Below, piece by piece: positions 4,691 to 61,264 of a DNA stretch of 64,000 nucleotides; the first letter of the stretch is position 1; the number at the start of each line of letters is the position of its first letter. The notes beneath the pieces are model-generated. The model did not search any database, was not told the DNA's origin, and saw only the letters and a program-made list of their open reading frames with translations. The position numbers and the translations under genes were made by a program. Source of the stretch: a candidate division WWE3 bacterium (GTDB taxonomy: Bacteria > Patescibacteriota > 4484-211 > GCA-002791395); assembly GCA_013335095.1 (NCBI GenBank), contig JAAXWF010000003.1, positions 69,960 through 133,959 of the forward strand, written 5' to 3'.

Positions 4691-4696
4691 AGCTGC

Positions 4697-5230: not shown

Positions 5231-5307
5231 GAAGCCGACGACGAACTGATGTGGGCCGTCAAGCGATGTGAACATTGCAGGGTGGTGCAACCCTGCGGGC
5301 TAGGGCG

Positions 5308-5739
5308 TTAGCCGTCAATCCAGACGACGGTCGCCCAACAATTGGCGTACCAGGGGACTCCTAGTAGCCAGCCGTTGCTGAGTGCCTTAGGGCACGCGAC
5401 CGGGTTCCAGCTCCACAGCTGGGTGGTGTTGTAGCTGACATGTCCACACTCTGTGAACTGTCCGTTATAGTAGGCCGTCTCCCATGGCTTGGTCGGGTTA
5501 AAGAAGTTACCCGTCCAGGTGACCTGGGTCGACTGGGCCCCGGGGCAGGCCGAGTAGTGGGCGATGTCCAGCTGCTGATCAGCGGGCTGATCAATCGACG
5601 CCGACATCGGGGCCGAGTTGTCGACCTGCTGGTCGGCCGCGTGGGCCGACTGCGGTGCGAACGAGCCGATCAGGCTGGCGATCACTGCGAGCAGGGTCAC
5701 GAGCTGGGCGAGACGCTTCATGGTGTAGCTGCGCAGCAT
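5308..5739 (-). CDS. small secreted protein, 4 Cys, Trp-rich C-terminus (paralog family member 1)
   Basis: ATG at 5739 with SD aaaggag 6 nt upstream. Sec-type signal peptide MKRLAQLVTLLAVIASLIGSFAPQSAHA. GC3 near saturation. The ORF-track N-terminal extension (TTG at 5862) would bury the signal peptide, so the shorter start is preferred. Confidence 0.6.
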   Translation of the reverse strand: MLRSYTMKRLAQLVTLLAVIASLIGSFAPQSAHAADQQVDNSAPMSASIDQPADQQLDIAHYSACPGAQSTQVTWTGNFFNPTKPWETAYYNGQFTECGHVSYNTTQLWSWNPVACPKALSNGWLLGVPWYANCWATVVWIDG

Positions 5740-5802
5740 ATGCTGCTCCTTTCGTAAAGCTGAAATAAGCTTAGGGGCGTAGTGTGCCCCTCTTCCATAA
5801 AA

Positions 5803-6078
5803 ATCCCGTCCGCTGACTAGCACCATCATCAGGGGGCGGGGTAAAGTTGTTTTGGCTTTCAAAACAACTTAATCCCACCTCCTAACAAAGGGCTAGAAGC
5901 AAGGTAATGCACCAAACTGTCAATGTACAGAATATGAGAATTACTCACATTCATATAATAATGATAGTACTATGGGTTAGGAAAGCAAATGTTTAAGTAT
6001 GAAATTTGTACAATTTATGAAGAAAAATAGGGCCGGATTTCGTGGTTAGACCACGAGATCCGGCCAGTGCCGACGACG
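5803..6078. repeat. ~276-bp noncoding direct repeat, copy 1 (terminator of upstream cassette + AT-rich promoter region + GC-rich leader of downstream cassette)
   Basis: About 95% identical to 6604..6879 by direct comparison of the two stretches. Confidence 0.8.
6022..6065 (-). terminator. rho-independent terminator of gene 6134..6553 (cassette terminator, copy 2)
   Basis: ggccggatttcgtgg / ccacgagatccggcc stem plus U-run on the minus transcript. Confidence 0.6.
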
Positions 6079-6133
6079 TTAGGACGTCAAGCTTTGCGTA
6101 CAGTGCAGGGCGGTGCAACCCTGCCAGGTTAGT

Positions 6134-6553
6134 TTACCACCAGATAGGCTCTTCCCACCAGCAATTGCTCCCCTTCGGGAGCGGTAGCGGGTGACCTTCC
6201 CACCAGCTGGGGCACGGAACGTCATTTGTCCACCACTCTCGGGCCCAGTTTCGGTGACCGCAGTAGATCCAGGTCCGTGTCACTTCGAAGTAGAGGTTGC
6301 TGTTGGCAGCCACGTAGTGACCAGTCCAATGGACTTGCGTTCGTTCCGCAGTTGGGCACTGGGCGTACTTCACCATCTCGTCGCTGGACGAATCCGGCAG
6401 GTCGATGGCAGTACGGCTGATCTGGGTGCTCTTGGCGATCTCGCTATTTGCCGCAGCGGCCTTTTGTGGCGTCGCCAGGCTAATGAGCGTCAGACCGAAG
6501 AGCAAGACGAACAGGGTGGACAGCCTCTTCACGAGGCGCTTGTTGCGCAACAT
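6134..6553 (-). CDS. small secreted protein, 4 Cys, Trp-rich C-terminus (paralog family member 2)
   Basis: SD aaggag 6 nt before the ATG. Signal peptide LSTLFVLLFGLTLISLATPQKAAAA. Shares Y..CP.A..TQV.WTG...CGH...CP...NCW...W with 5308..5739. Confidence 0.6.
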   Translation of the reverse strand: MLRNKRLVKRLSTLFVLLFGLTLISLATPQKAAAANSEIAKSTQISRTAIDLPDSSSDEMVKYAQCPTAERTQVHWTGHYVAANSNLYFEVTRTWIYCGHRNWAREWWTNDVPCPSWWEGHPLPLPKGSNCWWEEPIWW

Positions 6554-6603
6554 TTTGCGCTCCTTCTTAGGTGATTTGGGGCGCTAGAGCCCCGACTTTT
6601 CCT

Positions 6604-6879
6604 ATCCCGTCCGCTGACTAGCACCATCATCAGGGGGCGGGGTAAAGGTGTTTTGGTTTTCAAAACAACTTGATCCCACCTCCTAACAAAGGGCTAGAAG
6701 CAAGGTAATTCACCAAACTGTCAATGTACAGAATATGAGAATTACTCACATTCATATAATAATGATAGTACTATGGGTTAGGAAAGCAAATGTTTGAGTA
6801 TGAAATTTGAACAAAGTGAGAAGAAAAATAGGGCCGGATTTTGTGGTTAGACCACAAAATCCGGCCAGTGCCGACGACG
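6604..6879. repeat. ~276-bp noncoding direct repeat, copy 2
   Basis: See 5803..6078. Confidence 0.8.
6823..6866 (-). terminator. rho-independent terminator of gene 6898..7251 (cassette terminator, copy 3)
   Basis: Perfect stem ggccggattttgtggt / accacaaaatccggcc plus U-run. Confidence 0.6.
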
Positions 6880-6897
6880 GTTAGGCCGTCTGGCCTT

Positions 6898-7251
6898 TTA
6901 CTCGAACCGGTAATACCAGTTATAGTAGATCCCGTCTTGGTAGAGGGATCCTGGGTACTGGTTCCCGGCCAGGTCGAACGTCGGGGGGGTAACCCCGTAG
7001 ACGGGGCCGCTGTGGGCCTTGTGGGGGCCCATCAGCGGGACGGTGATCATAACGCTCGAGCAGTCCGAGCGGATGATTGTACCGATTACGCCACCACTGT
7101 AGAGGTTGATCACGATCTGACAGACCTTTGCCGCCGGGCTGGCGGCGGTGGTCGAGGCCTCGACGTGGGGCGGGTTAACCGCCGTGAAGCCGAGGGACGC
7201 GAGCAGGGCCATGATAATGAGCCAGTGGCTCCAGTGCAGGCGCGGCAACAT
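6898..7251 (-). CDS. small secreted protein (signal peptide, 2 Cys), high GC3
   Basis: SD aaaggagcggcatATG. A cccccatttggggg hairpin sits just upstream of the SD. Hydrophobic N-terminus WLIIMALLASLGFTA. Confidence 0.5.
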   Translation of the reverse strand: MLPRLHWSHWLIIMALLASLGFTAVNPPHVEASTTAASPAAKVCQIVINLYSGGVIGTIIRSDCSSVMITVPLMGPHKAHSGPVYGVTPPTFDLAGNQYPGSLYQDGIYYNWYYRFE

Positions 7252-7491
7252 ATGCCGCTCCTTTCTCCCCCAAATGGGGGTGGTAGGAAGATCCTCCGTG
7301 ACCGGTGTCAGGAGGCATTACTGCTTATTATCCTAATAGTCAGAAATGCCCCCTGAAGAGGTCTTGGATATGTGCCTGGTATGTAAACGTTCGATAGAGG
7401 CATGTAGAACATGCCTATTTCTAGTATAGACCCACTGAGCCTATAGTAAAGTTGATGGGAGATTTAGTTCATTCTTTGTTACAATAGCCAT

Positions 7492-8400
7492 ATGAAGTTG
7501 TCGGTGATCGTTCTTTCATACAATACCCGTGCTCAAACTCGTGATTGTCTGGCATCATTGGTTGGGTTACGTGATGTCTCTATCGGAAAGGATTTTGAAG
7601 TCATCGTTGTTGATAATTTTAGTAGTGACGGTAGTCAGCAAATGATAAAAGATGAATTCCCTCAAGTGACTTTAATCGAACAACGTTCTAATCTCGGATT
7701 TTCTAAAGGTAATAATGTCGGAATCAACTCACTTCATAAGGATAGCCAATATGTTCTGTTTTTGAACCCCGATACAATTGTTCCTTCGGGCACATTAAGC
7801 GAAATGACTAAATTTATGGATGAGAATTTGATGGTAGGTGTGGCTACGTGCAAGGTCCAATTAGCCGATGGGGGTATTGATATGGATTGTCATCGTGGAT
7901 TTCCTCGTCCATGGGTCGCCGCAACTCACTTTGTTGGACTCGATAAGTTATTTCCGAATAATCGGTTAGTATCCGAATATCATTTGGGATGGGAAGATTT
8001 ACAACGTCCTCATGAGATCGGTTCGGCTGTAGGAGCATTTCTTTTTGTCCGTCGTACTATCGGTGATTCAATAAACTGGTTTGATGAAGATTACTTCTTA
8101 AACGGTGAAGATATCGATCTGTGTTACCGAATTCATAAAGCCGGATACTTAGTGATGTATTATCCAAAAGTAACGATTACTCATTTGCGCGGAGTTGCAA
8201 AAGGTACCCGTAAAGAATCAACCCACATAACCAGTGCTGATTATGAACGGAAAAAGATGGTAACTAATGCAACGGTGAATGCAATGCAGCTGTTTTATGA
8301 TAAACACTACCGTAATAAGGATCCAAGATGGAAAAATTTGATCGTTGACGCAGGTATCTTTTTGCTCCGTCAAAAGAGACTGTGGTCTATTCACTCATGA
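7492..8400 (+). CDS. glycosyltransferase family 2
   Basis: N-terminal LSVIVLSYNTRAQTRDCLASL...VIVVDNFSSDGS (GT-A fold, DXD region). Confidence 0.75.
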   Translation: MKLSVIVLSYNTRAQTRDCLASLVGLRDVSIGKDFEVIVVDNFSSDGSQQMIKDEFPQVTLIEQRSNLGFSKGNNVGINSLHKDSQYVLFLNPDTIVPSGTLSEMTKFMDENLMVGVATCKVQLADGGIDMDCHRGFPRPWVAATHFVGLDKLFPNNRLVSEYHLGWEDLQRPHEIGSAVGAFLFVRRTIGDSINWFDEDYFLNGEDIDLCYRIHKAGYLVMYYPKVTITHLRGVAKGTRKESTHITSADYERKKMVTNATVNAMQLFYDKHYRNKDPRWKNLIVDAGIFLLRQKRLWSIHS

Positions 8401-39632: not shown

Positions 39633-40208
39633 ATGAAATTAAACTATCGAACTGCAGCAATCTTCGGCGTATTTCTCGTAAGCATATTAATACTAAGTAT
39701 TGGAATATTATTGAAACTAACGCCACAAGATAAGGCGACTCTAAATACTGTCAACATCACCACATTTACTCGTACATATGATGCATATACAAAGCCTAAT
39801 TTAGATTTAGTTTCGATCACACCGACCCCATTACCTGGTGGAAAACCGTGGTGGCTTCAATCATCTGATCAACCTATTAATGACACTGTTGCATTTGGTC
39901 GTAATCTAGGAACAATGATTTTTGATATTCGTTCAAAAAGCGATTTCGATGCAGATCATCTATCCGGGGCGTTTAGTTTACCTTTTGATGTTATTGTTTC
40001 GGGTACATATTCTATTCCATTATCTGCCGAAGTTATCATGTACGGTGACCGAATCACTTCGGATCAAAAGAATATAATTTCAGAGGCACTATTTTCGAAA
40101 GGGATACGCTCTGCTCAAATAATTGATTCATCGTATTCGGAATTAACCAGCATATTACCCCATGAACCTACAAAAGAAACATTTAAAGAAGATGATACAC
40201 ATGAATAA
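39633..40208 (+). CDS. membrane-anchored rhodanese-like domain protein
   Basis: N-terminal TM helix. Region DIRSKSDFDADHLSGAFSLP resembles a rhodanese active-site neighbourhood. Confidence 0.35.
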   Translation: MKLNYRTAAIFGVFLVSILILSIGILLKLTPQDKATLNTVNITTFTRTYDAYTKPNLDLVSITPTPLPGGKPWWLQSSDQPINDTVAFGRNLGTMIFDIRSKSDFDADHLSGAFSLPFDVIVSGTYSIPLSAEVIMYGDRITSDQKNIISEALFSKGIRSAQIIDSSYSELTSILPHEPTKETFKEDDTHE

Positions 40209-42558
40209 ACTAATACATTTGTTAATTTATTCAGTATTTATTAGTACGTGTATTTTATATATCTTTTGCCCAGCTCTAACCTATGCAGCGCCCACCGCAA
40301 CAAAACGAATCGGAACGTTAAATGGCACTAACTTTGTAGAAAAAAATACCTTTACAGTTGGGGAAAAGGCTACCTACGAATTAACAATTAATGGGCCAGC
40401 TAATTCCACCAGCAGTCGAAGAGTTCCGATGGACGTTATGTTTGTCGTTGATGATTCAGGTAGTACTACAATGGCGAATTGGCCCGGGGCATATTCGTAT
40501 GGTTCTCCAAAACCTCTGGTAATCGAGGTTGCTCAGTACGCCATGAAATCAATGCTTGATATGGCTGATCCAACTATTGATCGATTCGGACTGGTCTACT
40601 TCAAAATGGATGCTAAATTGACCCAACCATTAACAAATGATTTTAATTTACTAAAAAGCAAAATTGATGGTTTGCCGAGGACTGACGGTGGTTCTGATCT
40701 TGGGGAAGGTGCACTTACTGCATCTCAGCATCTCGTTGCTCAATCACGACCAGATGCGTCACGTAATGTTATTTTATTGAGTGATGGAGGGATTACCTGT
40801 TGTGCTCCTTGGACTATTGATCTACTGGATCCATCAGTCACTGATTATCAGATTAATAACGGAATTACTGGTCATAGTGTTGGGATGGGGGCTGGTACCA
40901 TTCAGGTTCCTAATAGTCGGTTTGATGATTATGTGTATACCTGTCCTATTGGCAATGTTCGCGTTCGAAGTGGAGAGGAGTATTTAAAATGTTATTCTCA
41001 AATGACGGGGGGCACGTATACGTATGGACCTGATCCTGATTCTTTTGTGGCGGCATTTCAGGCTATGGTGCAAATAATAAATGAGAATCTGTCGACATCG
41101 GTTGAAGATTATATAAATACAACACATTTTCAAAACCCACGGTTAGTTAGTGTTACTGATTTATATGGCAATACAACATCAGATACCGTAACTATTACGG
41201 GTAATCGTGTTTCAGCTGATTTTGGCAACCTCTCCAGTGGGGATGGGCGTAGAATTTATGTTGAAGCAGATGTTACAGCCGGTTCTACAGGTACTTCATG
41301 GAGCGTCACCGCCGATGCTCAACCAGATAATAGTAATTCGGTGAATTATACGGTTGATACCGGATCGATTCAATCGACAGCAATATTTAATAATCCGCTC
41401 ATTACGGTTCATTACCCGCTACCTGGATCAATAAGTGGACGTGTTTACCTTGATTTAAGTAATAACTGCTCATTAGAAAGCGGTGAAGCTGGTACCAATT
41501 CAGCTAGTCTTCGCCTTGATCAGTTACTACCAAGTTCATGTTCTCCTTCAACGCGAACTACAATACCTGATAGTAGTGGTAATTATACTTTTTCTAACCT
41601 AGACTGTTTTGAACCGAGCGGCGGCGCTACATATCGTCTATTTGTAACTTCAACTAATGCTGATTTCACCACAACAACATGTGGTAATTCATATACGATA
41701 AACCTAAGTCCAGGTGAGGATTATCAGATAAATCCTCCGCTATCCGTACTAAAAGATCCATGGTTCCAATTATCTGGAGGATCTGTGTACGCTCATGGGA
41801 TGATTAACTCTCCAATACCAAATTCGGCGATAGATAAATATATAATCTCTTCAAATGCAACTCTTAGTGCGGGTCATATTGCGACTGACTCGACAATCCA
41901 ACTTGATAATGGAGATATTTCATCGAAGCATTGGAGTACTGTCCCGTATTCTGAAACTATTGCCTCCACAATGATGCCTGACCAGGTTGTATCTATGTTA
42001 CAAAATTATATTGATGATCCCAATTACGATGGGTCTGCACCAAAGGCAGGGGATGCAACTGATGGTATCGCGGTGTATTCATCGAAAAGATCAACCCTGA
42101 CGTTATCTGGAAATTGGCAGCATATTAATTTCCCGGTAATAGTAATTATGGACAGCACTGCTGGCGGCATGGATGTACGTATTCCAAGTTCAATTACCCA
42201 GGGGCATATTAGTTTAAACCAAAAGGGATTTCTCATGATTATTGCTCGGGATATCTTTATCGATTCAGGTCTTGGTGAGGACGATAATAGTTCGACATCG
42301 CCAACCTTAGAGGGACTTTTTATTGCCCGACGTAATTTTGATGCGGGTGGGAGTGGAGATCCAGCCATCGACAAACGATTAAATATCAGTGGTTCTGTTA
42401 TTACCGGAACTGATAGCTTGGGTGGATATACGAGTCAACGCACTCATGAAGAAAATTATTTATATCCAGCCGATTATTTTGTATTTAATCCCAAACTACT
42501 GTTAAATTACCCATCGCAATTGATGCCGTCTCATTATAGTTGGAACGAAGTCCATTGA
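40201..42558 (+). CDS. large secreted surface protein: signal peptide, vWA domain, CnaB/SdrD-B-like domain, conserved C-terminal module
   Basis: Signal peptide MNKLIHLLIYSVFISTCILYIFCPALTYA. MIDAS DxSxS (VVDDSGS). Motif GRVYLDLSNNC…GEAG. About 380 C-terminal aa paralogous to 43116..45863. Confidence 0.6.
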   Translation: MNKLIHLLIYSVFISTCILYIFCPALTYAAPTATKRIGTLNGTNFVEKNTFTVGEKATYELTINGPANSTSSRRVPMDVMFVVDDSGSTTMANWPGAYSYGSPKPLVIEVAQYAMKSMLDMADPTIDRFGLVYFKMDAKLTQPLTNDFNLLKSKIDGLPRTDGGSDLGEGALTASQHLVAQSRPDASRNVILLSDGGITCCAPWTIDLLDPSVTDYQINNGITGHSVGMGAGTIQVPNSRFDDYVYTCPIGNVRVRSGEEYLKCYSQMTGGTYTYGPDPDSFVAAFQAMVQIINENLSTSVEDYINTTHFQNPRLVSVTDLYGNTTSDTVTITGNRVSADFGNLSSGDGRRIYVEADVTAGSTGTSWSVTADAQPDNSNSVNYTVDTGSIQSTAIFNNPLITVHYPLPGSISGRVYLDLSNNCSLESGEAGTNSASLRLDQLLPSSCSPSTRTTIPDSSGNYTFSNLDCFEPSGGATYRLFVTSTNADFTTTTCGNSYTINLSPGEDYQINPPLSVLKDPWFQLSGGSVYAHGMINSPIPNSAIDKYIISSNATLSAGHIATDSTIQLDNGDISSKHWSTVPYSETIASTMMPDQVVSMLQNYIDDPNYDGSAPKAGDATDGIAVYSSKRSTLTLSGNWQHINFPVIVIMDSTAGGMDVRIPSSITQGHISLNQKGFLMIIARDIFIDSGLGEDDNSSTSPTLEGLFIARRNFDAGGSGDPAIDKRLNISGSVITGTDSLGGYTSQRTHEENYLYPADYFVFNPKLLLNYPSQLMPSHYSWNEVH

Positions 42559-42621
42559 TACGATGAGGATAGAGGTTAAAGGTCGTTTCTATACTGTTAT
42601 TTTATGTTTTGATGTTCTATT

Positions 42622-43122
42622 ATGATAGAAGATATGTTTCGAAACATAACACTTGGATGGAAAAAAGTGCTTGCAATAAGTATTATTGCTGTTTTTATTG
42701 GTGTTTCAGGATATGGCCTCGTAACCTATTTATCACATGAAACTTCAAGGACTATTCAGTTAGACGATGGACAACAGTTACTTGCGGTTCTTCAACATCA
42801 AGCGGTTCCACTCGAATCGACATCAATTGAAAGCGCTGGACTCTTATACTTAATTAGTGGGGTAGTTAATGATGTAACTCCGGCTTACAATGCTAATCAA
42901 CAGGGGATTTCGTTTCACCTTATTGATGGCCAGGGTAATCTCTTACCACCACAATTTATGTTATATGACAGCTCTACATCTATCGTTCATCTCGATAGTC
43001 AGGGAGAAAGCCAAGCCTCGATTAAAGATATTCGTCAAGGTGATGCCGTTAAGGTAAATTATTACGTTGATTTAAAGTCTGGCGAATCGTTGGTTACCAA
43101 AATAGCATTGCTTACATGGTAA
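42622..43122 (+). CDS. hypothetical membrane-anchored protein
   Basis: One TM helix near the N-terminus. Lies between the two giant paralogs. Confidence 0.35.
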   Translation: MIEDMFRNITLGWKKVLAISIIAVFIGVSGYGLVTYLSHETSRTIQLDDGQQLLAVLQHQAVPLESTSIESAGLLYLISGVVNDVTPAYNANQQGISFHLIDGQGNLLPPQFMLYDSSTSIVHLDSQGESQASIKDIRQGDAVKVNYYVDLKSGESLVTKIALLTW

Positions 43123-45863
43123 AGCTCAAGTATTTTCTCCTCCTGTTTTTAATATTAACTCCGATGTTTTTATCTTCGTTTTCTCGTGTAGCCTCTGCTG
43201 CATGTGTTTGTTCTGGCGCGTTTGGGGCATGTTCCTGTTCGAGTTCAGGCTGCAATGGCATACAGGTATGCAATGGAACTGACAATATAACTGGAGCATC
43301 ATGTGTTCTCTCCCAGAGTTGTAATTTACCACCAAATACAAATAGTTGTGATTGTAGTGGTGTTAAATGTAATGGGAGTGGGGAATGTTGGAATTACAGT
43401 AACACGTCATGTACATATCCCAGTCAGTGTACCGGGGCATTGGGGGGGGGGACTGGGTGTCATTATTGCCAGACTCCGCTTGTTACTGCAACACCAGTAC
43501 CAACAACGCCTCCATTATCTGGTTCATGCGGTGGTGGTTGTGGCTTTTGTGAATGGCGTGGTAGTGATGGAGCCTGTCATGGCGGAGCCCGTCCTGGTGG
43601 TGGATGGTGCTGTCATCGTTCTTGTGTAAATGGTACATGCGCAACAGTCGATGGATCTGGTTCCGATTCTTGTGCGTCTAATGGTTCTACATGTGCTATG
43701 CCAACTCCTGGTCCTGGTGTTTGTGTTAATGGTGCTTCATGTAGCTGCTCTGGCGCAAGTGCCGGTCATTGTTCACAGTGTGGTGGCAGTTGGTGCAATG
43801 GTGGCCATTGTAGTTGTGGAGGGAGTGGTGGGTGCTCGACCCAACTGACCTGTTCTAATTTTACTGCAACTGGGCCAAGTGGTACGGTTATTCATGCGAT
43901 ATCACAAGATGATCATAATAAAGGCTATGCAGTCCCTGAATTAATAGTTCGACCAAATGATAATATTCGGTTCTATAACGATATATTTCCAGATGAGCCG
44001 TACGGTATGCGTGGTGAATATAATTGGGGCGATGGTACATCATGTCGTGAATGGTTAGTCGGTAATCATTCATCGCCGCGCGCGGTTTACTTCTGTAATG
44101 CCGGGAAGCTCAATAATGCCTGGTATAACGATGCTAATCTGCCCAACGTTACGATTGCTCCCAAACCGTACCCGTGGTGTGATGAAGACCTTTGGGACTC
44201 CGGCGACTGCGACTGTACTGCTGATGGGCGTACGATGATGTGCTTAATGCATGCCGACGATGGCGTCGCATATCGACGATATGCAGCATCTGGAGTCTAT
44301 TCCGTTGCTTTACGTGCTCAAACAGCATGTGTTTGGGATGATAATAATTCAAATCCGTGTTTATTGAAAATTCGTGTGCAAGCACCTCCAACGATTCCAA
44401 CTGGTCTACAAGTTGTATGTAATAATGGTAGTGGAAACGCTACATTCTCGTGGAACGCATCAACGAACACTGCTCGATATGTATTACGTATAAATAAAGA
44501 ACCAGCCGCCGACTGGGCAAATGTTGCTGCCGGTGATCAGTACATTGAAACCTCGGCAACTTCATATACGACTAATATAACTTTCGGCGATTCATATGCA
44601 TGGTGGAGTGTGCAGCCTGTGGCTGTCGGCGAAATGTATCCGTATTCTTCGACCGCGGCATATAGTGGTGCTTTCGCGTGTCCGAATGTGACACCAACCC
44701 CGCTACCTACCTTAACACCTGTTCCTGCCCAAGTCGGGGGTAATGTTTTCCTTGATATAAGTAATAATTGTATGAAGGATTCGGGTGAACCGGGTTCATC
44801 GGATGCAACGCTTCGATTAGAGCGCCTACTTCCTGGTTCTTGCCCAGCTTATTCACAGAATCAAAATCCAACTGCAAGTGGTACGTATTCATTTACTAAT
44901 TTAAATTGTTTTGATGCCGCTGCGAGTTCGACATACCGATTGCGAGCCAGTACTGCAAATGCTAATTATGAACTACGATGTGGCAATGACCTCAACTTAA
45001 ATGTTATTGGTGGCGCAAATGTTCAGCGCGATTTTGGCTTAACTATCTTACGGGATCCTTGGTTTCAGGCATATAGTGGTGCGATATATGCTGATGGTTC
45101 GATTGACTCAAAGATTCCTGCATCAGCAATAAATCCTCGGTTAGTATATTCTGATATTGTTCATTCTCCAGAGGTTGTGTCTGGGGGCACTATTAATACA
45201 AACAGCGGAACCGTATCATCGACGAATTGGAAGATTTCAAGTTACGCATCTGAGGCTGAATTGCCCGTGAGTATGACGCAAATTATTAAGACATTAACGG
45301 GAAAGGTTGACCGAAATAATTGGAATGGTGCTCCCCCAGTGGCTAGTGATGCGACCGATGGTATCGCCGTATACTATAACAAGGCGGATAATGTGACACT
45401 AAATGGAAATTGGCAGAACATCAATTTTCCTGCAGTTGTTATGGTCGAAGGGACCTCTGCTACTAATGGAAATATTACAATTCCAAATACGATTGTTGGT
45501 CAACGAATTACGCTTGGAGCAAATGGCTTTTTGATGGTTCTTGCGTACAACGATATATTAGTGTCATCTTCGATTGGAGAAATGTTCAATATGTCTAGTA
45601 CTCCAGATTTAGAAGGTCTCTTTATCGCCGGGCGTAATGTGAATGTCGGCGGGACGAATGACCGTCTTGTTGATAAACGTATTAATATCTCCGGTAATGT
45701 TATTACCGGCACTCGGGTTGCGGGTACGTACATCTCAAGGCGTAGTCATGAAGATAACCATCTTTATCCTTCTGACTATTTTATTTACAATCCTAAGTTA
45801 ATACTCAATATCCCACGCATCTTGTCTGATCCCGCATATGAATGGGGCGAACAACTAAAGTAG
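43116..45863 (+). CDS. large secreted cysteine-rich surface protein with FN3-like middle region and the same CnaB-like + C-terminal module as 40201..42558
   Basis: Signal peptide; about 250 aa with >40 Cys. C-terminal region alignable to the vWA paralog (…DPWFQ…SGG.VYA.G.I.S.IP.SAI…ISG.VITGT…YNPKL.LN.P). Confidence 0.6.
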   Translation: MVKLKYFLLLFLILTPMFLSSFSRVASAACVCSGAFGACSCSSSGCNGIQVCNGTDNITGASCVLSQSCNLPPNTNSCDCSGVKCNGSGECWNYSNTSCTYPSQCTGALGGGTGCHYCQTPLVTATPVPTTPPLSGSCGGGCGFCEWRGSDGACHGGARPGGGWCCHRSCVNGTCATVDGSGSDSCASNGSTCAMPTPGPGVCVNGASCSCSGASAGHCSQCGGSWCNGGHCSCGGSGGCSTQLTCSNFTATGPSGTVIHAISQDDHNKGYAVPELIVRPNDNIRFYNDIFPDEPYGMRGEYNWGDGTSCREWLVGNHSSPRAVYFCNAGKLNNAWYNDANLPNVTIAPKPYPWCDEDLWDSGDCDCTADGRTMMCLMHADDGVAYRRYAASGVYSVALRAQTACVWDDNNSNPCLLKIRVQAPPTIPTGLQVVCNNGSGNATFSWNASTNTARYVLRINKEPAADWANVAAGDQYIETSATSYTTNITFGDSYAWWSVQPVAVGEMYPYSSTAAYSGAFACPNVTPTPLPTLTPVPAQVGGNVFLDISNNCMKDSGEPGSSDATLRLERLLPGSCPAYSQNQNPTASGTYSFTNLNCFDAAASSTYRLRASTANANYELRCGNDLNLNVIGGANVQRDFGLTILRDPWFQAYSGAIYADGSIDSKIPASAINPRLVYSDIVHSPEVVSGGTINTNSGTVSSTNWKISSYASEAELPVSMTQIIKTLTGKVDRNNWNGAPPVASDATDGIAVYYNKADNVTLNGNWQNINFPAVVMVEGTSATNGNITIPNTIVGQRITLGANGFLMVLAYNDILVSSSIGEMFNMSSTPDLEGLFIAGRNVNVGGTNDRLVDKRINISGNVITGTRVAGTYISRRSHEDNHLYPSDYFIYNPKLILNIPRILSDPAYEWGEQLK
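43442..43451 (+). repeat. G10 homopolymer tract inside the coding sequence (encodes GGG)
   Basis: ttg-ggggggggg-gact read directly. Sits about 110 codons into the gene. Confidence 0.85.
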
Positions 45864-47286: not shown

Positions 47287-48210
47287 ATGCGGTATTTACC
47301 GTACTCACAGCGGAGGCCGGATCGGCAGTATAGTCAGCTTCTGGTCGAGATCCTTAATTCAGGTCTTTGGTCGCCCGCACAACAAGGTGGCCGGACAAGA
47401 AGTCGGTTGGGCTGCCAGATGCGGTTTCCATTATCGAACGGATTTCCGATTGTGACCGTCAGGGATCTGGCTACTCCATTTAAGAGTGGCCGCTCAATCC
47501 TTGGGCAGGCGCTGGGCGAACTGTGCGGGTTTCTTAATGGTGCTCGTACCCAAGAAGAGCTGGAGCAATTCGGCTGCTATTGGTGGGCACCATGGGTAAC
47601 CGAAGCAAAATGTGCCAAGCGTGGACTTGAGGAAGGGGATCTTGGACCAGGCTCATATGGGCCAGTCTGGACGGCATTTCCAACGCCTGATGGTAGCACC
47701 TTTAATCAGTTTGATGCGATGGTTCAGCAGATGATTGAACTCCCGCATCTTAAAACTCACCAGGTTGTACCGTGGTTTCCGCCGTACAATTTTCGTGGTG
47801 ACGGTGTTTTACAGCAGGTCGTTGTTGTGCCGTGTCATGGATGGGTGAATGTCGCTGTATATCCAGAACTCGGTGAATTCGACCTAGTCCACGTACAGCG
47901 GAGTGCTGATGTACCGGTTGGGCTGGTGGCGAATATGATTCAGTACGCTGCCCTCATGCTTATGCTTGAGGTGCTTACGGGATATCATCCACGTGAGCTG
48001 GTGTATATGATCGTGAACGCCCATGTGTTCGAATCGCAGCTGGTGGCTGTCGATAAGATCCTTGGGGTGGAGCCTGTCGAATTTCCTACAGTGACCATCG
48101 CCGAGCATGCCCAAGCACATTCAAGTGTTCGGGATTTTCGTGCCGGTGATTTTATTGTTTCCGATTATCATCCGGTTCTTCCGGTGATGCGGATTCCAAC
48201 ACCGGTATAA
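47287..48210 (+). CDS. thyA: thymidylate synthase ThyA-family (divergent; see findings)
   Basis: PCH active-site motif (VVVPCHGWV). GPVW…PTPDG, QRSADV…N…Y and C-terminal H..FE blocks alignable to ThyA. SD aaggaggg. Confidence 0.7.
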   Translation: MRYLPYSQRRPDRQYSQLLVEILNSGLWSPAQQGGRTRSRLGCQMRFPLSNGFPIVTVRDLATPFKSGRSILGQALGELCGFLNGARTQEELEQFGCYWWAPWVTEAKCAKRGLEEGDLGPGSYGPVWTAFPTPDGSTFNQFDAMVQQMIELPHLKTHQVVPWFPPYNFRGDGVLQQVVVVPCHGWVNVAVYPELGEFDLVHVQRSADVPVGLVANMIQYAALMLMLEVLTGYHPRELVYMIVNAHVFESQLVAVDKILGVEPVEFPTVTIAEHAQAHSSVRDFRAGDFIVSDYHPVLPVMRIPTPV

Positions 48211-48219
48211 GGAGGCGCT

Positions 48220-48753
48220 GTGGAACCGAACTCTTCTCGGCTGAAGGTCTCAATTATCGCCGCGGTTAGCGACCATGGTTGTATCGGTTTACGCGGGGCT
48301 CTGCCATGGGATCTTCATACCGATCTCCGGCGGTTCGCGCGGATAACCGCAGGTCAGCCGGTAATTATGGGGCGTTCGACTTGGGAATCTATCGTCGCGA
48401 TGCGGGGAGGGGCTCTCCCTGGTCGGACGAATATTGTTCTGACCAGTCAAGTTCCGTATCGTGTTCCGGATGATGTGATCGTAGTGAATTCGCTTCACCG
48501 CGCGTTACTCATCGTGCCGGGTGATAGTGTGTTTGTGATCGGCGGAGCATCTTTATATGCACCGGCCCTGCCTCTGGCGACATCGTTGCATATTACCTGG
48601 GTACATGCACGAATTGTTGGCGATCGCCACTTTCCTGCGTTTAATCCAGCGAACTGGGATGTCGTGACGACTGAAGAGGTCTCAATCGGCCCGCAGGATC
48701 AGTACGCATCAACGTACACACTGTATAAACGGAGGGTTCATGGATCAGAGTAG
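48220..48753 (+). CDS. folA: dihydrofolate reductase
   Basis: VSIIAAVSDHGCIGLRGALPWDLHTDLRRFARIT is the DHFR N-terminal signature. Confidence 0.8.
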   Translation: MEPNSSRLKVSIIAAVSDHGCIGLRGALPWDLHTDLRRFARITAGQPVIMGRSTWESIVAMRGGALPGRTNIVLTSQVPYRVPDDVIVVNSLHRALLIVPGDSVFVIGGASLYAPALPLATSLHITWVHARIVGDRHFPAFNPANWDVVTTEEVSIGPQDQYASTYTLYKRRVHGSE

Positions 48754-49177
48754 TCAGCCCTTCGTTGTGCTTGAGCATGCACGCTCGGCAGATCAGCTGC
48801 TGGTCATGCAACAGATCACTGCGGATGGGGTGTGCCCATTTTGTATGGAGCATCTGTTCTCTTACCATGATCAACCGATCTTGTGGGGGGGCATATCGTG
48901 GATCATTACCCCTAGCCGTTGGCCGTATGCTGGAACGAGGTTGCACCTTTTGGCGATTTCTATCCAGCACGTAGAACATCTATCCGATGTCACCCCGTCG
49001 GCGGCGATGGATCTATGGCAAGGCTTAAGTTGGGTCGAGCAGAACTTTACGCTTGCGGGGGGAGCGATTGGTCTGCGTTTTGGTGATCCTACCTTAAATG
49101 GTGGGAGTGTTCGACACCTACATGCTCATATCATTGTGGCGGACGGGCAGCAGCCCGTTCGTTTCAAGATGGGTTGA
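48740..49177 (+). CDS. HIT-family (histidine triad) nucleotide hydrolase/transferase with CxxC
   Basis: HLHAHII histidine triad. Confidence 0.7.
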   Translation: MDQSSQPFVVLEHARSADQLLVMQQITADGVCPFCMEHLFSYHDQPILWGGISWIITPSRWPYAGTRLHLLAISIQHVEHLSDVTPSAAMDLWQGLSWVEQNFTLAGGAIGLRFGDPTLNGGSVRHLHAHIIVADGQQPVRFKMG

Positions 49178-49191
49178 TGTAGGTAACGTAT

Positions 49192-49226
49192 ATGCCTCGG
49201 TCGTAATTGATCGAGGCATTTTTATT
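49192..49226 (+). terminator. rho-independent terminator of the thyA-folA-HIT operon
   Basis: atgcctcg…cgaggcat stem followed by TTTTATT. Confidence 0.6.
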
Positions 49227-49231
49227 ATAGG

Positions 49232-49260
49232 TTGACGATGGTGTTTGTTGTATATATAAT
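49232..49260 (+). promoter_or_regulatory. consensus sigma70 promoter TTGACG-N17-TATAAT driving a noncoding transcript
   Basis: -35 at 49232-49237, -10 at 49255-49260. No ORF of 60 aa or more lies downstream before the terminator at 49872. Confidence 0.55.
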
Positions 49261-49295
49261 ATGTAACATTCTACGTGTGAGGCGCACCGGAAAGA

Positions 49296-49375
49296 CTGTG
49301 AACTGGATCAACCCCGTTTTCCATAGGGGTTGGCGGTTTGGGCTCGAAAGAGCTAGAGGCTGAAGAAGCCCACAG
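49296..49375 (+). repeat. structured repeat module A (P1 ctgtg/cacag; hairpin aacccc…ggggtt; GNRA-capped hairpin gctcGAAAgagc)
   Basis: Read directly. About 90% identical to C and about 85% to B. Confidence 0.8.
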
Positions 49376-49436
49376 TCGCCCTGCCGTGGGGTTATTCACG
49401 GCTGCGGAGGACTTTGTCCTCCAAAAATCCTAAATT

Positions 49437-49513
49437 CTGTGAACTGGATCGATCCCGTTTTGAGGGGTCGGCGGTTTGGGCTCGAAAGAGCTAGTGGCTG
49501 AAGAAGCCCACAG
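49437..49513 (+). repeat. structured repeat module B
   Basis: Hairpin 1 changed to gatccc…ggggtc. Pairing is preserved (A-U to G-C plus a G-U), i.e. a compensatory change. Confidence 0.8.
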
Positions 49514-49548
49514 AGTTTAGGATCTCGGCATCCGTTCATGATGGATGA

Positions 49549-49628
49549 CTGTGAACTGGATCAACCCCATTTTCCATAGGGGTTGGCGGTTCGGGCTCGG
49601 AAGAGCTATAGGCTGAAGAAGCCCACAG
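49549..49628 (+). repeat. structured repeat module C
   Basis: Tetraloop variant gctcGGAAgagc. Otherwise as module A. Confidence 0.8.
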
Positions 49629-49871
49629 TTATTCATCATGGATGTGTTGCCATGGAGAGCCTGCGGCGTTATCCGTAGGTCTACCCTCTCCATTACTCGC
49701 CCTCAATCGAGGGCTGCGGGGAAATTTCCCTGCGCGCACCGGTAGAGTGCGCTACATCACCCGGGGTGGATTGCTTGGCAACACCCCTTTCCAGCAAGGC
49801 TGGATCTGATCAATTTAACGCTGCTACTTAAATTTTTCGCAGCAATTTTGATCGATCTCGTCTTGCGATAT

Positions 49872-49911
49872 GGCCGGCACTCCGAAAGGGATGCCGGCCT
49901 TTTCTTTTTTT
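49872..49911 (+). terminator. rho-independent terminator (8-bp GC stem + U-run)
   Basis: ggccggca-ctccgaaaggga-tgccggcc-ttttcttttttt. Confidence 0.65.
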
Positions 49912-50761
49912 ACTCCATTGAATTAGGAACTATCACGTGAACAATACGTACACCAAAGTGTTTCAGTATTGTTTGACCATCGAGCATTGCATAGCCATCT
50001 GCATAGTACATCGTCCGAATGCCTGAGCATCCGATTAACTTTGCACACGCTGGGCAGGGAAATGTACTTACATAGAGATGGCTTCCTTTTGTCCGAAATC
50101 CATCTCTAGCTGCCATTGCGATTACATACGCTTCGGCATGAATTGCCGTGGTTAGATCAACATGCACTGCTTTATACAATGCATTACGCGGATCCCCGTC
50201 ACTATATGGGGTAAGTGGATGCGGGAGGTGACGGTTAAACCCCGTGATGAGTATTTGTCCTCGCGGGGAGACCAATACCGCTCCTACCTGACGCCACCAA
50301 TCCGAAGATTGATGCGCCGCTTTTTGTGCCCGCCCAAGCAGTTCAACATGACAAGCCTCTGCCGTGATGACTTGATCCGGTATAACCTCTTGTTCGGTAA
50401 CCGTACGCCGTTTATCCCATCGCAAAAAGATCGCCGAATAGATGGTCTGATTACGTTTGAAGTACTGGTGCGCCAATTGATGACACACATCTTCGTCGGG
50501 CATCACTATCAGTGAGGCTTGCATTGCTAGTTCCCGAAGACCGTCCTCATCGATTACACGAACGCTTGGTATGATCCCGATGACTCGTAGCGCATCAGCA
50601 ATCATATGGGGCGTGAGTGACCGAATCTCTTTGGCCAGGTAATCAAACTGATCAATTAACTCTTGTGAGATGATACAGAGTTGATCAGCATCAGCGTGGC
50701 ATTTAAGTAGATCGATATATCCACGATGAAGTATGGGGATATAGGCTACGATGACCTTCAT
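49910..50761 (-). CDS. dCMP / deoxycytidylate deaminase with ~130-aa N-terminal extension of unknown function
   Basis: Zinc motifs HAE and PCPAC in the C-terminal half. N-terminal half unassigned. Confidence 0.6.
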   Translation of the reverse strand: MKVIVAYIPILHRGYIDLLKCHADADQLCIISQELIDQFDYLAKEIRSLTPHMIADALRVIGIIPSVRVIDEDGLRELAMQASLIVMPDEDVCHQLAHQYFKRNQTIYSAIFLRWDKRRTVTEQEVIPDQVITAEACHVELLGRAQKAAHQSSDWWRQVGAVLVSPRGQILITGFNRHLPHPLTPYSDGDPRNALYKAVHVDLTTAIHAEAYVIAMAARDGFRTKGSHLYVSTFPCPACAKLIGCSGIRTMYYADGYAMLDGQTILKHFGVRIVHVIVPNSME

Positions 50762-58273: not shown

Positions 58274-61066
58274 ATGGACAAAGGAGCTCACTTTTACAAA
58301 TGTGATTTTCAAGTTCACACTCCTCGGGACGCAAACTGGGAGGGTGCGGAAGCCATCACAGAGCAAGACCGTAAAGCTTATGCAGAGGAGCTTATTCAAG
58401 CATGCCGAGCAAAGAATATTGATGTAATTGCAGTAACTGATCATCACGATTTCTGCATGTTCCCATATGTGAAAGCCGCAGCTGCAACAGAGGTGAATGC
58501 TACAGGAGACTCCATTCTGAAAGAGAATCAGATTATTGTCTTTCCTGGCATCGAAATCACGCTTTCATCTCCACCTTGCCAAGCGATACTTTTATTCGAT
58601 GCTGATTTCGATGAGACAAAATTTGGAGACATTCTAACAACGCTCACTATTGCTGCCACAGATCCGGCAAATAGCAAACTTGCAAGCGTTGAGTCTGTAT
58701 CACCGGCATCAATCACCGGATTGAACGATCTCGAAGAACGACTAAATCAGCATCCATGGCTTAAAGGAAAATACATCATACTTCCGAACGTCACTTCAGC
58801 AGGATATAAAACTCTTTTTCGGGATGGATTCGCAAAACACTACAAAGAGATGCGTTGCGTGGGTGGTTATGTTGATGGTGATTATTCAAAGTCGAGTGAT
58901 GGACATAAAAATATCCTTGAGGGTCGCCAGCAAAATAATGGATACAAACCGATTGCCGTCTTTCAAACTTCAGATAACCGCAAGCGTGATCATTCTGATC
59001 TTGGTTCGTCTAGCACATACGTCAAATGGTCAGAGCCGACTGCAGAGGCACTGCGTCAGGCATGCTTGGCTAGAGAATCTAGGGTTTCTCTCATTGAACC
59101 CGAACTTCCGAATCTTTGGATTACATCAATCAGCGTTACAAACTCCAAGTTTCTTGGACAAATTGGCTTTGATTTAAACCAGCAATACAACGCCATTATT
59201 GGCGGTCGTGGTACGGGCAAGTCTACAATTCTCGAATATCTCCGATGGGGACTTTGTGATCAGCCGATGGAAAGCGAGGACATGGATATTGTGCAAACTA
59301 AACGTAAGAACTTGATCGACAATACTCTCCAGAAATTCGACGGTGAAGTGCATGTGGAATTTTTACTCAATGACGTTCCTCATATCGTAAAACGTAACTC
59401 AAAGAAGCAGGAAATTTTGCTTAAAATTGGCGACGGTGATTTTACTCTTGCCACAGAACAACAAGTGCGAAATTTGCTTCCGATTCAAGCGTACAGTCAG
59501 AAACAGCTTAGTAGCGTAGGTGTACGCATCGATGAGCTCAAGCGTTTTGTCGAATTACCAATCAAACAGGAACTCGATCAGATTCGTTCGGATGTAAGAG
59601 ACATCGAAGCGAAGATGCGATCCACCTATGGCGATCTAATTCGGATGAATGAAGTCAAAGCCGAAATCGATAAAAACAACGTTGAGATAGCTTCTTCGAC
59701 TAAACAACTGGAGAAACTTCGCAAGAGTCTTAAAGGTTTATCTAAAGAGGATCAGGAAACTATCGATCAAAAGGCAAAGTACGATAACGAAGAAGCGATC
59801 ATTGAGGGTCTCAAAAACGAGCTAGAAACGACCCAAAAGCACGTCGGTAGTCTTGTTGTTGAAGCATTGGAGAGCGAAGATGTAGAGGAGGAAGATTTCG
59901 AGCTTGAGAACAAATCTCTGATCGGCCGTATTCAAGAGAAATATGCTTCTAAATTTATCGAAATAGAAGCTGGTGTTTCTTCACTCGCTAATCTCTTCAA
60001 TCCAACATCGCTCAAGAGTATCAATGACGAAGTTGAAGAATGGGAAAAACTCAAGACGGCGTTTGATAAGAAATACGAAGCCGCAAAAGTAAAAGCTAAG
60101 GATAACCAGCAACAGCTCGATCAGATCCAAACTCTTGAGAAGCGTATTGCCGCACTCAAAAAACAACAGACGGAAAAACGCAATGCACTTGCGGCTCTTG
60201 GCGATCCAGAAACTGCGTACAAAAAACTCCGCACCAAGTGGGACGGTTTGCATACCCAAAAAATCACAGCTCTTGAGAAGCAGTGTACTCAGTTCACCGC
60301 ACTCTCTGACGATCTCATTAAGGCAGAAATTACAAACAGTCTGGACACTACATCCCTCACATTAAAACTCAAGACTGCTTTTTCCGGCATGAACATTAAC
60401 GAAGCAAAGCTTGAGAAAGTCTGCCAATCCCTCTTAGAAGCGAGTGATCCCCTTGTTGAATGGAACAGCATTCTTTCTGAACTTGAAAAGCTCGCATTTT
60501 ACTCCACAGAGGGACCGGATGAAATACCGGATACCCCGATTCTTAACAAGTGCAATTTTATTGACACTGAGCGTACAAGAATTGCGGGGAGTTTTGACTC
60601 TGCACGATGGCTTGATCTTTCTGTCACAGAGCTTGAATTTAATCCAAAGTTTTCTTATTGCACTAACAAAACGGAAAAAGATTATATCGGATTCTCGGAT
60701 GCATCAGCTGGTCAACAAGCTACCGCCTTGCTTACCGTTCTGTTGAACCAGCCAGGTGCGCCACTCATTATCGATCAACCTGAGGATGATATCGACAGTA
60801 AGATGTTCAAAGATATTGTTCAGCAGGTGTGGAGGGCTAAGGGTAAACGTCAGCTTGTTTTTGCGAGCCATAGTGCGAACATTGTCGTCAACGGTGATGC
60901 CGAACTGGTGGTCTGTTGTGACTACATAAAAACTGGTGATCAGACCCGTGGAGCAATTAAAGCTATGGGTGCGATCGATAAAAAAGAGATTAAAGAAGAA
61001 ATCATTCTTGTCACAGAAGGTGGACGGGATGCATTCAAATTAAGAATGGATCAATACGGTTTTTAA
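58274..61066 (+). CDS. PHP-domain phosphoesterase fused to SMC/ABC-type ATPase (Walker A GGRGTGKST, long coiled coil, Walker B LIIDQPEDDID); candidate single-gene anti-phage defence protein
   Basis: N-terminus CDFQVHTPRD…VTDHHD has PHP His motifs. The ATPase head is split by a ~350-aa coiled coil. ABC signature-like SDASAGQQ precedes Walker B. Confidence 0.7.
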   Translation: MDKGAHFYKCDFQVHTPRDANWEGAEAITEQDRKAYAEELIQACRAKNIDVIAVTDHHDFCMFPYVKAAAATEVNATGDSILKENQIIVFPGIEITLSSPPCQAILLFDADFDETKFGDILTTLTIAATDPANSKLASVESVSPASITGLNDLEERLNQHPWLKGKYIILPNVTSAGYKTLFRDGFAKHYKEMRCVGGYVDGDYSKSSDGHKNILEGRQQNNGYKPIAVFQTSDNRKRDHSDLGSSSTYVKWSEPTAEALRQACLARESRVSLIEPELPNLWITSISVTNSKFLGQIGFDLNQQYNAIIGGRGTGKSTILEYLRWGLCDQPMESEDMDIVQTKRKNLIDNTLQKFDGEVHVEFLLNDVPHIVKRNSKKQEILLKIGDGDFTLATEQQVRNLLPIQAYSQKQLSSVGVRIDELKRFVELPIKQELDQIRSDVRDIEAKMRSTYGDLIRMNEVKAEIDKNNVEIASSTKQLEKLRKSLKGLSKEDQETIDQKAKYDNEEAIIEGLKNELETTQKHVGSLVVEALESEDVEEEDFELENKSLIGRIQEKYASKFIEIEAGVSSLANLFNPTSLKSINDEVEEWEKLKTAFDKKYEAAKVKAKDNQQQLDQIQTLEKRIAALKKQQTEKRNALAALGDPETAYKKLRTKWDGLHTQKITALEKQCTQFTALSDDLIKAEITNSLDTTSLTLKLKTAFSGMNINEAKLEKVCQSLLEASDPLVEWNSILSELEKLAFYSTEGPDEIPDTPILNKCNFIDTERTRIAGSFDSARWLDLSVTELEFNPKFSYCTNKTEKDYIGFSDASAGQQATALLTVLLNQPGAPLIIDQPEDDIDSKMFKDIVQQVWRAKGKRQLVFASHSANIVVNGDAELVVCCDYIKTGDQTRGAIKAMGAIDKKEIKEEIILVTEGGRDAFKLRMDQYGF

Positions 61067-61189: not shown

Positions 61190-61264
61190 TGGAGCGGGTA
61201 GCGGGAATCGAACCCGCATCTTCACCTTGGAAGGGTGACATAATAGCCTTTATACAATACCCGC
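61190..61264 (-). tRNA. tRNA-Gly (anticodon UCC), CCA encoded
   Basis: Cloverleaf folded by hand: acceptor GCGGGTA/TACCCGC, anticodon stem TCACC/GGTGA with loop CUUCCAA, T-arm GCGGG-TTCGATT-CCCGC. Confidence 0.85.

Follow-up and report, generated by a model that had tools for sequence, protein, structure and literature searches.

The DNA considered here is a 64,000-nucleotide stretch (the window) from a candidate division WWE3 genome (Katanobacteria; Patescibacteria, also called the Candidate Phyla Radiation, CPR), and its positions 39633-45863 hold a four-gene cassette. The four open reading frames (ORFs), all on the forward strand and in tight array, encode in order a rhodanese-like protein, a putatively secreted protein here called protA, a 166-residue protein and a second putatively secreted protein, protB. 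protA and protB are paralogues with swapped heads: a single strong BLASTP alignment joins residues 424-796 of protA to residues 540-912 of protB with 165 of 375 positions identical (44%, E 2e-102), and the N-terminal halves show no similarity. An earlier sequence-only reading of this DNA had claimed a common C-terminal region of about 380 residues behind differing N-terminal heads and had proposed a pairwise alignment of the C-terminal regions as the check; that alignment is significant far beyond chance and nothing aligns outside the shared region, so that both halves of the claim hold, although the label "giant" does not suit proteins of 798 and 915 residues. The C-terminal module of about 300 residues, which the same reading had treated as a local feature, is the defining domain of a large unannotated family.

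The C-terminal module and its family

Neither of the two window modules matches Pfam, NCBIfam or the sequences of the PDB, even at E <= 10. The family was delimited by matching a profile exhaustively against 1.84 billion cluster representatives (clusters at 50% identity), which returned 1,269 representatives at E <= 1e-3, 171 at E <= 1e-10 and 22 at E <= 1e-30; a word-indexed protein search is insensitive here, finding one relative with the shared region and 18 with a 39-sequence profile. The counts of position, motifs and secretion given below refer to the best 150 of the 1,269 representatives, and the scan for additional domains to 58 members. The module is C-terminal in nearly all of them: it ends 0-1 residue from the end of the protein in 138 of the 150, and in 131 a W-x-E motif lies exactly 5-6 residues from the C-terminus, mostly as WQEVAP or WREVAP. 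A methionine with a hydrophobic N-terminus is present in 97 of these relatives. None of the 150 has LPXT[GAS] in its last 60 residues or a prepilin motif in its first 60, and both window proteins have N-termini that look Sec-type. The sequence-only reading had advised a search for sortase or other anchoring signals, and across these 150 relatives no known signal of that kind came to light.

What precedes the module varies from almost nothing to about 1,400 residues, and the heads of the 58 scanned members carry VWA (5 members), SdrD_B (7), Big_7, CarboxypepD_reg, FG-GAP, CBM_4_9, PKD, cadherin and Hint/intein domains, among others. All relatives with a named organism are Patescibacteria ("Patescibacteria group bacterium", Candidatus Levybacteria, "Microgenomates group bacterium", a Candidatus Saccharibacteria metagenome-assembled genome (MAG), and WWE3), and the proteins are deposited as hypothetical or under the name of the head domain. 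Clusters of paralogues occur elsewhere as well, with two family genes at one locus (L007) and, at another (L016, 2049-10130), three in a row of 787, 780 and 709 residues with a 191-residue gene and a rhodanese-like gene between them; the latter cluster is of the same kind as that of the window, and larger. One Microgenomates member (P0068) has a Hint/intein-like domain at residues 88-243 (C88 ... VHN243), near the N-terminus of its head, and PT-HINT matches are found in 2 of the 58 members. A released-toxin role for the module, by the logic of pretoxin-HINT proteins, was rejected because the Hint domain of P0068 lies near the N-terminus and not before the module. No description of the module family, or of the rhodanese pairing described below, was found in the literature searched, where absence is not proof.

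An AlphaFold2 model of the module, made from a 39-sequence alignment, reaches a predicted local distance difference test score (pLDDT) of 91.9 and a predicted template-modelling score (pTM) of 0.89, and consists of about 15 strands and two short helices. In a Foldseek search of the PDB the top match is ComZ of Thermus (6qvi_B; E 0.16, probability 0.60, TM 0.37), which is non-significant; further matches, all weak, are to DUF3494 ice-binding proteins, the tapirin C-terminal domain (E 0.87), family 3 pectate lyases and tailspikes. DUF3494 proteins are also the top fold matches in BFVD, again non-significant (E 0.075-0.13). In the tip-located pilin ComZ the solenoid forms a triangular beta-helix, with the ice-binding protein FfIBP as its closest relative (PMC6561018), and because of that relationship the ComZ and DUF3494 matches represent one fold class. 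On the basis of the model and these matches the module is probably a beta-solenoid. An autotransporter barrel was rejected, since the model shows short helices and a beta-rich core, no membrane-barrel fold is matched, and the C-terminal residue is H, K or P where a barrel would have F or W.

A distant sequence relationship is seen with PF23981 (DUF7305), matched by 13 of 39 modules at E <= 0.1 with a best E of 6e-7. Seven of these matches, scored singly, give 11.7-22.8 bits, all below the gathering cut-off of 27, and the alignment pairs profile positions ~48-165 with module residues ~122-236. This pattern suggests that the module is related to DUF7305 distantly and is not a member of it; DUF7305 itself is mentioned by no paper in the literature searched. 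Four alignment columns are invariant across the family (W10, G194, G220 and R236) and eight are nearly so (Q12, P29, I174, N241, P245, P260, W270 and E272). The conserved positions lie mostly near the two ends of the module, in a PWFQ start and an R...N..YP...P...W-x-E tail, and form no obvious catalytic set.

Heads, SdrD-B-like domain and rhodanese-like partner

The head of protA was previously described as a vWA domain with a metal-ion-dependent adhesion site (MIDAS), and this description is confirmed. Residues 91-212 match VWA_2 (PF13519) at 42 bits against a cut-off of 27 (E 1.6e-10) and VWA (PF00092) at 34.9 bits against 23.8, and protB has no such match. The MIDAS residues D56, S58, S60, D167 and G168 are invariant in six orthologues, each of which has Ser or Thr at the T/S position that follows GG. 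The whole head (residues 30-423) is orthologous in P0006, P0007, P0008, P0009 and P0012 (phmmer E 1e-46 to 1e-67). In an AlphaFold2 model of the head together with the following SdrD-B-like domain, N-terminal strands lead into the alpha/beta vWA domain, after which come a region rich in strands and, at the end, a beta-sandwich that is modelled well; the alternation of strands and helices over model residues 49-266 corresponds to the Rossmann-like vWA fold. The beta-rich region after the vWA domain and the N-terminal strands (residues 45-77) probably form, in this model, a sandwich into which the vWA domain is inserted.

Compared with solved structures by Foldseek, the protA head model matches many vWA structures with probability 1.0, and its top multi-domain matches are PitA (E 4e-18), Mfa5 (E 8e-17), SpaC (E 9e-16) and RrgA (E 9e-14), followed by isolated vWA domains, integrin beta subunits and PilB of S. 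sanguinis, a vWA-bearing pilin (7ba2). As modelled, the protA head is thus built like a tip adhesin, yet without the sortase signal that defines one.

The head of protB is of a different type. The protein has 50 cysteines, of which 36 fall within residues 1-260, all of these at residues 30-246, and none in the last 275 residues; the sequence-only reading was right in calling the head cysteine-rich but overstated the number, which it had put at more than 40 in about 250 residues. The cysteine-rich region matches no Pfam family. It is followed by a middle region, delimited tentatively, in which PKD-like motifs (YNWGDGTS ... GVYSVALRA) can be recognized by eye and which also has no match in Pfam. 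Repeats homologous to the next, FN3-like segment occur in P0133 and P0105, and a four-sequence profile of the segment searched against the PDB has FN3 domains or FN3-containing chains as its top four matches, all weak (E 0.004-0.07). The earlier FN3-like assignment accordingly finds backing in weak profile matches to solved FN3 domains (best E 0.004) and none in Pfam, which has no match to the segment. Both proteins were also said to carry signal peptides, and both N-termini do look Sec-type to the eye: in protA, MNK, a hydrophobic stretch and TYA precede a putative cleavage site before AP, and in protB, MVKLK, a hydrophobic stretch and ASA precede one before AC.

At the point where the shared region starts, each protein has a small domain that matches SdrD_B (PF17210) at 22.4 bits in protA and 20.4 bits in protB, both below the cut-off of 29.7. 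The sequence-only reading had placed a CnaB/SdrD-B-like domain here; its position and the four cysteines of the domain agree with that claim, although the scores fall short of the Pfam threshold. Homology to SdrD_B is nevertheless likely, since 7 of the 58 scanned relatives match the family at E <= 0.001 (best E 4.6e-10). In the AlphaFold2 model of protA, residues 381-488 are all strands with block-mean pLDDT of 70-91, forming a small all-beta sandwich. The four cysteines align in eight family members, protA, protB and six others, and this suggests two disulfides. The calcium-binding motif D-x-N-x-N-G-x-x-D reads LDLSNNCSLESGE here, with the Gly changed to Cys, and is only partly kept. The four-Cys domain of the window type is found in 25 of the best 150 relatives, in 21 directly before the module; in the vWA orthologue P0012 it is missing and a Pro/Thr linker joins the head to the module.

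The rhodanese-like gene is a conserved partner of the vWA-headed subfamily. It lies directly upstream of the vWA-headed gene and on the same strand in five of five genomes (the window, L005, L015, L016 and L017), a set that comprises every vWA-headed locus that could be fetched; the L015 pairing was seen in a second sample too, and the other neighbours differ among the five. The partners are N-terminally membrane-anchored proteins of 175-200 residues, often overlap the vWA gene, and are homologous to one another (BLASTP E 1e-29 to 3e-5). The window partner matches PF00581 at 16 bits against a cut-off of 22.2 (E 0.017); precomputed PF00581 matches are unmarked in the partners of L015, L016 and L017 and marked weak in that of L005. 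The rhodanese-like label given earlier has a weak match behind it in the window protein itself. The position of the catalytic Cys reads YGD, YGD, YFG, YSE and YGD in the alignment, and since the Cys is absent from all five partners, the rhodanese-like protein should be catalytically inactive. At the loci examined, no family gene without a vWA head had a rhodanese-like neighbour, so that the partner tracks the vWA head and not the tail.

Other small membrane proteins are found near family genes. A family of single-pass membrane proteins of ~130 residues (PF.Y ... I.L.G..G...P.D ... G..A; E 1e-12 to 1e-33) stands beside family genes, twice in L002 (3031-3826) and four times in L007 (931-1773, 5899-6715)/L008, and the two genomes are unrelated; a 191-residue gene in L016 and an RskA_C protein in L018 are further neighbours of this sort. 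Membership of the 166-residue window protein in the L002/L007 family was considered and found unsupported (hhalign probability 0.2, no BLAST match).

Gene order, features and surroundings

The features of the cassette are collected in Table 1. The rhodanese-like and small transmembrane genes are interleaved with the two large ones, as the sequence-only reading had said. The stop codon of the rhodanese-like gene overlaps the protA start by 8 nucleotides (ATGAATAA), a 63-nucleotide gap separates protA from the 166-residue gene, and the stop codon of the latter overlaps the protB start by 7 nucleotides. From this spacing alone, the two overlaps and the short gap, the four genes appear to form a single transcription unit; scans of the locus for promoter and terminator consensus sequences gave counts at chance level. 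The longest ORF of protA runs from 40162 to 42558 (798 residues), but the ATG at 40201 is the likelier start, and the resulting 785-residue form is deposited as NTV31301.1, "VWA domain-containing protein". The public protB record, NTV31304.1 ("hypothetical protein"), begins at an internal Met and has 721 residues, and an alternative call has 899. Only the 915-residue ORF from 43116 has both a signal-peptide-like N-terminus and the full cysteine-rich region; the public record is probably too short.

Table 1. Features of the four-gene cassette, in window coordinates
Feature	Position	Strand	Basis or content
Rhodanese-like membrane-anchored protein, 191 residues	39633..40208	+	Pfam Rhodanese E 0.017, below cut-off; alignment with homologues
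protA, 785 residues from ATG 40201	40201..42558	+	Signal peptide, Ig-like strands with inserted vWA, SdrD-B-like domain, C-terminal module
protA putative Sec signal peptide, MNKLIHLLIYSVFISTCILYIFCPALTYA before AP	40201..40287	+	Read from sequence by eye
protA vWA domain with MIDAS residues DDSGS ... GGS ... SDG	40429..41082	+	Pfam VWA_2 and VWA above cut-off
protA beta-rich Ig-like region after vWA	41092..41412	+	AlphaFold2 secondary structure, pLDDT 50-85
protA SdrD-B/CnaB-like domain, Cys 436, 460, 482, 507	41428..41736	+	Pfam SdrD_B E 1.5e-4, below cut-off
protA C-terminal module, ~273 residues, ends WNEVH	41737..42555	+	Shared region, family profile
Small single-pass membrane protein, 166 residues	42622..43122	+	No detectable homologues in related loci
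protB, 915 residues	43116..45863	+	Signal peptide, Cys-rich, PKD-like, FN3-like, Pro/Thr linker, SdrD-B-like domain, C-terminal module
protB putative Sec signal peptide, MVKLKYFLLLFLILTPMFLSSFSRVASA before AC	43116..43199	+	Read from sequence by eye
protB Cys-rich region, residues 29-246	43200..43853	+	Cys count
protB middle region with PKD-like motifs, residues 247-420, tentative	43854..44375	+	By eye
protB FN3-like segment, residues ~421-525	44376..44690	+	Weak profile matches
protB SdrD-B/CnaB-like domain, Cys 552, 576, 598, 622	44730..45035	+	Pfam SdrD_B E 6e-4, below cut-off
protB C-terminal module, ~275 residues, ends WGEQLK	45036..45860	+	Shared region, family profile

The surroundings of the cassette were read from the Pfam context of an identical locus (L006). 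Upstream lie housekeeping genes for MraY, FtsW, MurG, FtsQ, FtsA, FtsZ and ribonucleotide reductase, and downstream those for serine hydroxymethyltransferase (SHMT), ThyA and dihydrofolate reductase (DHFR). The FtsZ of the window shares 100% identity with a deposited protein from a candidate division WWE3 bacterium. A family gene in another Patescibacteria MAG (L009, 8001-9143) stands, like the window genes, beside SHMT (on the opposite strand), thyA and folA, and this shared adjacency may mark an old syntenic position. No sortase or pilin family is listed among the genes called within ~10 kb on either side of the identical locus, and no sortase family among those of the related loci. Beyond these flanks the check for sortases and pilins took in ten further ORFs of the window, and no pilin-like gene was found in the window. 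For the family at large the genomic context comprises about a dozen loci, and a metagenome scan for family neighbourhoods yielded four short contigs.

Some features of the window lie apart from the cassette. The G+C content rises to 0.50-0.52 at 4001-8000 and at 48001-50000, against about 0.41 elsewhere, and neither patch contains rRNA. ORFs 3138-4622, 5308-5862(-) and 6841-7356, in the region of the first patch, have no Pfam match, and the second patch spans the end of thyA (to 48210), DHFR, a HIT-family ORF and the first bases of a deaminase ORF that begins at 49910; the patches may be foreign DNA. At 58274-61066 a 930-residue ORF matches ATPases of the AAA_21, AAA_23 and SMC_N types (AbiEii-associated AAA family) and may encode a defence-type ATPase; a tRNA gene adjoins it at 61193-61264.

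Interpretation and comparison with known systems

The picture that we favour, and to which we give about an even chance, is one of Sec-exported modular surface proteins in which swappable ligand-binding heads are carried on a constant retaining or assembling tail. The heads would be the ligand-binding ends, directed at a host cell or a surface. In protA the metal of the MIDAS would coordinate an acidic group of the ligand, as in RrgA, SpaC and PitA, and in protB the ligand end would be made up of the disulfide-rich region with the PKD-like and FN3-like domains. The cysteine-rich parts would be disulfide-bonded outside the cell; enzymes for such extracellular bonding, MdbA-like oxidoreductases with VKOR, are enriched in CPR genomes (bioRxiv 10.1101/335083), which fits secreted proteins of this kind. 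The SdrD-B-like domain would serve as a stalk, probably cross-linked by two disulfides. In what is the weakest step, the constant tail would retain the proteins on the producing cell or assemble them there, standing in for the sortase/LPXTG anchor of otherwise similar Gram-positive adhesins. The rhodanese-like protein may act from the membrane side as a chaperone, gate or co-receptor. Adhesion by these proteins is plausible, and the adhesin reading made from the sequence gains from the resemblance of the modelled protA head to solved pilus-tip adhesins, its nearest structural counterparts, adhesion and host attachment as such being inferred.

LPXTG regions, SLH domains, dockerins, the C-terminal domains of type IX secretion (T9SS CTDs) and autotransporter domains are each a terminal module common to many paralogues that otherwise differ, and in such cases it is usually the constant part that is responsible for display. 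The reading of the tail as a display device draws on this analogy, and on the order of head, stalk and constant end, which mirrors that of the microbial surface components recognizing adhesive matrix molecules (MSCRAMMs). By such analogy the tail may act as a module for anchoring, surface retention or assembly, a proposal that we regard as rather open to doubt. A fuller version, in which the tail is a display or assembly module specific to Patescibacteria and independent of sortase, for interchangeable host-binding heads (vWA, Cys-rich, CBM, PKD and others) of these episymbionts, with a catalytically dead, membrane-anchored rhodanese-like protein holding or gating the vWA adhesin, is unlikely to be right in all its parts.

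A number of observations weigh against the favoured picture. The module has no transmembrane segment and no LPXTG, and nothing in it gives a sign of retention at the cell surface. It is acidic (median pI 4.7), unlike many wall-binding modules, and a basic wall-binding module is for that reason unsupported. No constant docking partner for the module was found, the small membrane proteins near family genes not being of one family. Two apparently complete relatives have very little in front of the module, P0025 consisting of a signal peptide or anchor and the module with almost no head, and P0124 having a cysteine-rich mini-head of ~45 residues; these suggest that the module can act alone, as more than a cargo handle. 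The assignment as a beta-solenoid is itself affected by the non-significance of the fold matches (best E 0.075-0.16, TM <= 0.37) and by Pfam matches that stay below threshold, the window modules having no DUF7305 match at E <= 10. The model of the protA head with its SdrD-B-like domain is of moderate confidence (pLDDT 74, pTM 0.55), and the signal peptides were judged by eye.

In a different explanation it is the C-terminal beta-solenoid that does the work, by binding a polymer of the host or substratum or acting on it as an enzyme, and the heads add avidity or targeting. Parallels would be the C-terminal beta-helix by which tapirins bind cellulose, the ice-binding domains of adhesins, and the folds of pectate lyases and tailspikes. 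The near-headless P0025 speaks for this explanation, the weak fold matches all fall among beta-helices with a binding or lytic function (DUF3494 ice-binding proteins, tapirin C-terminal domain, family 3 pectate lyases, tailspikes), and the heads of the relatives are mostly generic binding or spacer domains (Big, PKD, CBM, CarboxypepD_reg). The pattern of conservation does not favour it, however: only four columns are invariant, those nearly so cluster near the module ends without an obvious catalytic set, and no enzyme family is significantly matched. Moreover the heads include a real ligand-binding domain, the vWA domain with an intact MIDAS, which suggests that specificity resides in the heads. 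We consider a working end at the C-terminus improbable.

The ComZ match raises another explanation, that the module docks these proteins onto type IV pili or some other filament, as non-pilin accessories of the pilus tip in CPR bacteria. The best PDB fold match is to ComZ, itself located at the tip, and it can be added that genes for type IV pili are a prominent feature of CPR genomes (bioRxiv 10.1101/335083), that pilin and PilM genes lie some 4 kb from the family gene at one locus (L010), and that vWA modules do occur on pilus adhesins, S. sanguinis PilB (7ba2) and, as an analogy, the vWA-bearing PilY1/PilB type among them. But the ComZ match is non-significant, L010 is the sole examined locus with pilus genes within 8 kb, and the lack of a prepilin motif in any of the 150 relatives goes together with the lack of a pilin-like gene in the window; we rate docking on a pilus as a very unlikely role. 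Self-assembly, by which the PWFQ start and the W-x-E tail of successive modules would stack head to tail into a surface fibre or layer with headed paralogues as decorated and headless ones as plain subunits, accords with the conserved positions near both ends, the fixed-length C-terminal tail, the headless members and the several paralogues per genome, but is pure conjecture and runs against the usual role of conserved caps in beta-solenoids, which is to prevent stacking, and is equally hard to credit.

Patescibacteria are thought to live attached to other microbes, and their genomes are full of unannotated secreted proteins; to our knowledge the proteins of attachment are largely uncharacterized in this group. 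The tail domain with its swappable heads offers a handle for finding candidate host-binding proteins across the CPR, with more than 1,200 clusters and a tail for which Pfam has no domain. If the tail is an anchoring or assembly module, as in the picture of constant tails and exchangeable heads, it would give these bacteria, with their poorly understood envelope, a new means of keeping proteins at the surface; if it is another binding beta-helix, the outcome would be a useful family definition and no new principle. The vWA type and its inactive rhodanese-like membrane protein form a two-component relationship that is open to direct test. Modular secreted adhesin-like proteins are a known kind, and two features here are not described in the literature searched, the family-wide constant C-terminal domain and the obligate inactive-rhodanese partner of the vWA type.

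Among known systems, DUF7305, which is uncharacterised, resembles the module through the 13 of 39 matching modules and a weak precomputed match in P0155, but the PWFQ start and the W-x-E tail of the module fall outside the matched part. The ComZ solenoid and the DUF3494 proteins are the top fold matches in two libraries, and FfIBP and the module both have a short helix beside a beta-rich core; the matches are nevertheless non-significant (E 0.075-0.3, TM 0.24-0.37), and the module has no pilin domain and no sequence similarity to these proteins. The tapirins of Caldicellulosiruptor are likewise secreted surface proteins in which a C-terminal beta-helix is the conserved part. They differ in sitting in a pilus locus and in binding cellulose through the C-terminal domain, and their fold match to the module is very weak (E 0.87). 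Dockerins, SLH domains, T9SS CTDs and autotransporter beta-domains offer the same arrangement of many paralogues with different functional domains and one constant terminal module. The present module has no sequence or fold relation to any of them, far exceeds a dockerin or a T9SS CTD in size, and is modelled as soluble and beta-rich.

The closest comparisons are with Gram-positive adhesins and the type V tip protein Mfa5. The sortase-assembled vWA tip adhesins S. oralis PitA, L. rhamnosus SpaC and S. pneumoniae RrgA, together with Mfa5, share with protA a Sec signal peptide (putative in protA), a MIDAS-bearing vWA domain surrounded by Ig-like domains of the CnaA/CnaB type, and a beta-sandwich resembling a stalk, and they are the best structural matches of its head. 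Unlike them, protA lacks LPXTG and a membrane helix at the C-terminus, and no sortase or pilin family is listed among the genes called within ~10 kb of it; its Ig-type domain has four cysteines, probably in disulfides, in place of the documented isopeptide bonds; and it ends in a beta-rich module of 275 residues that they lack. In comparison to the MSCRAMMs, of which SdrD with its A region, B repeats and wall anchor is an example, the constant part here is a folded domain and not a wall-spanning LPXTG region, and the SdrD_B match is below cut-off, but the order is the same, in that a variable N-terminus for ligand binding is followed by a stalk of SdrD-B type and the C-terminal part is constant.

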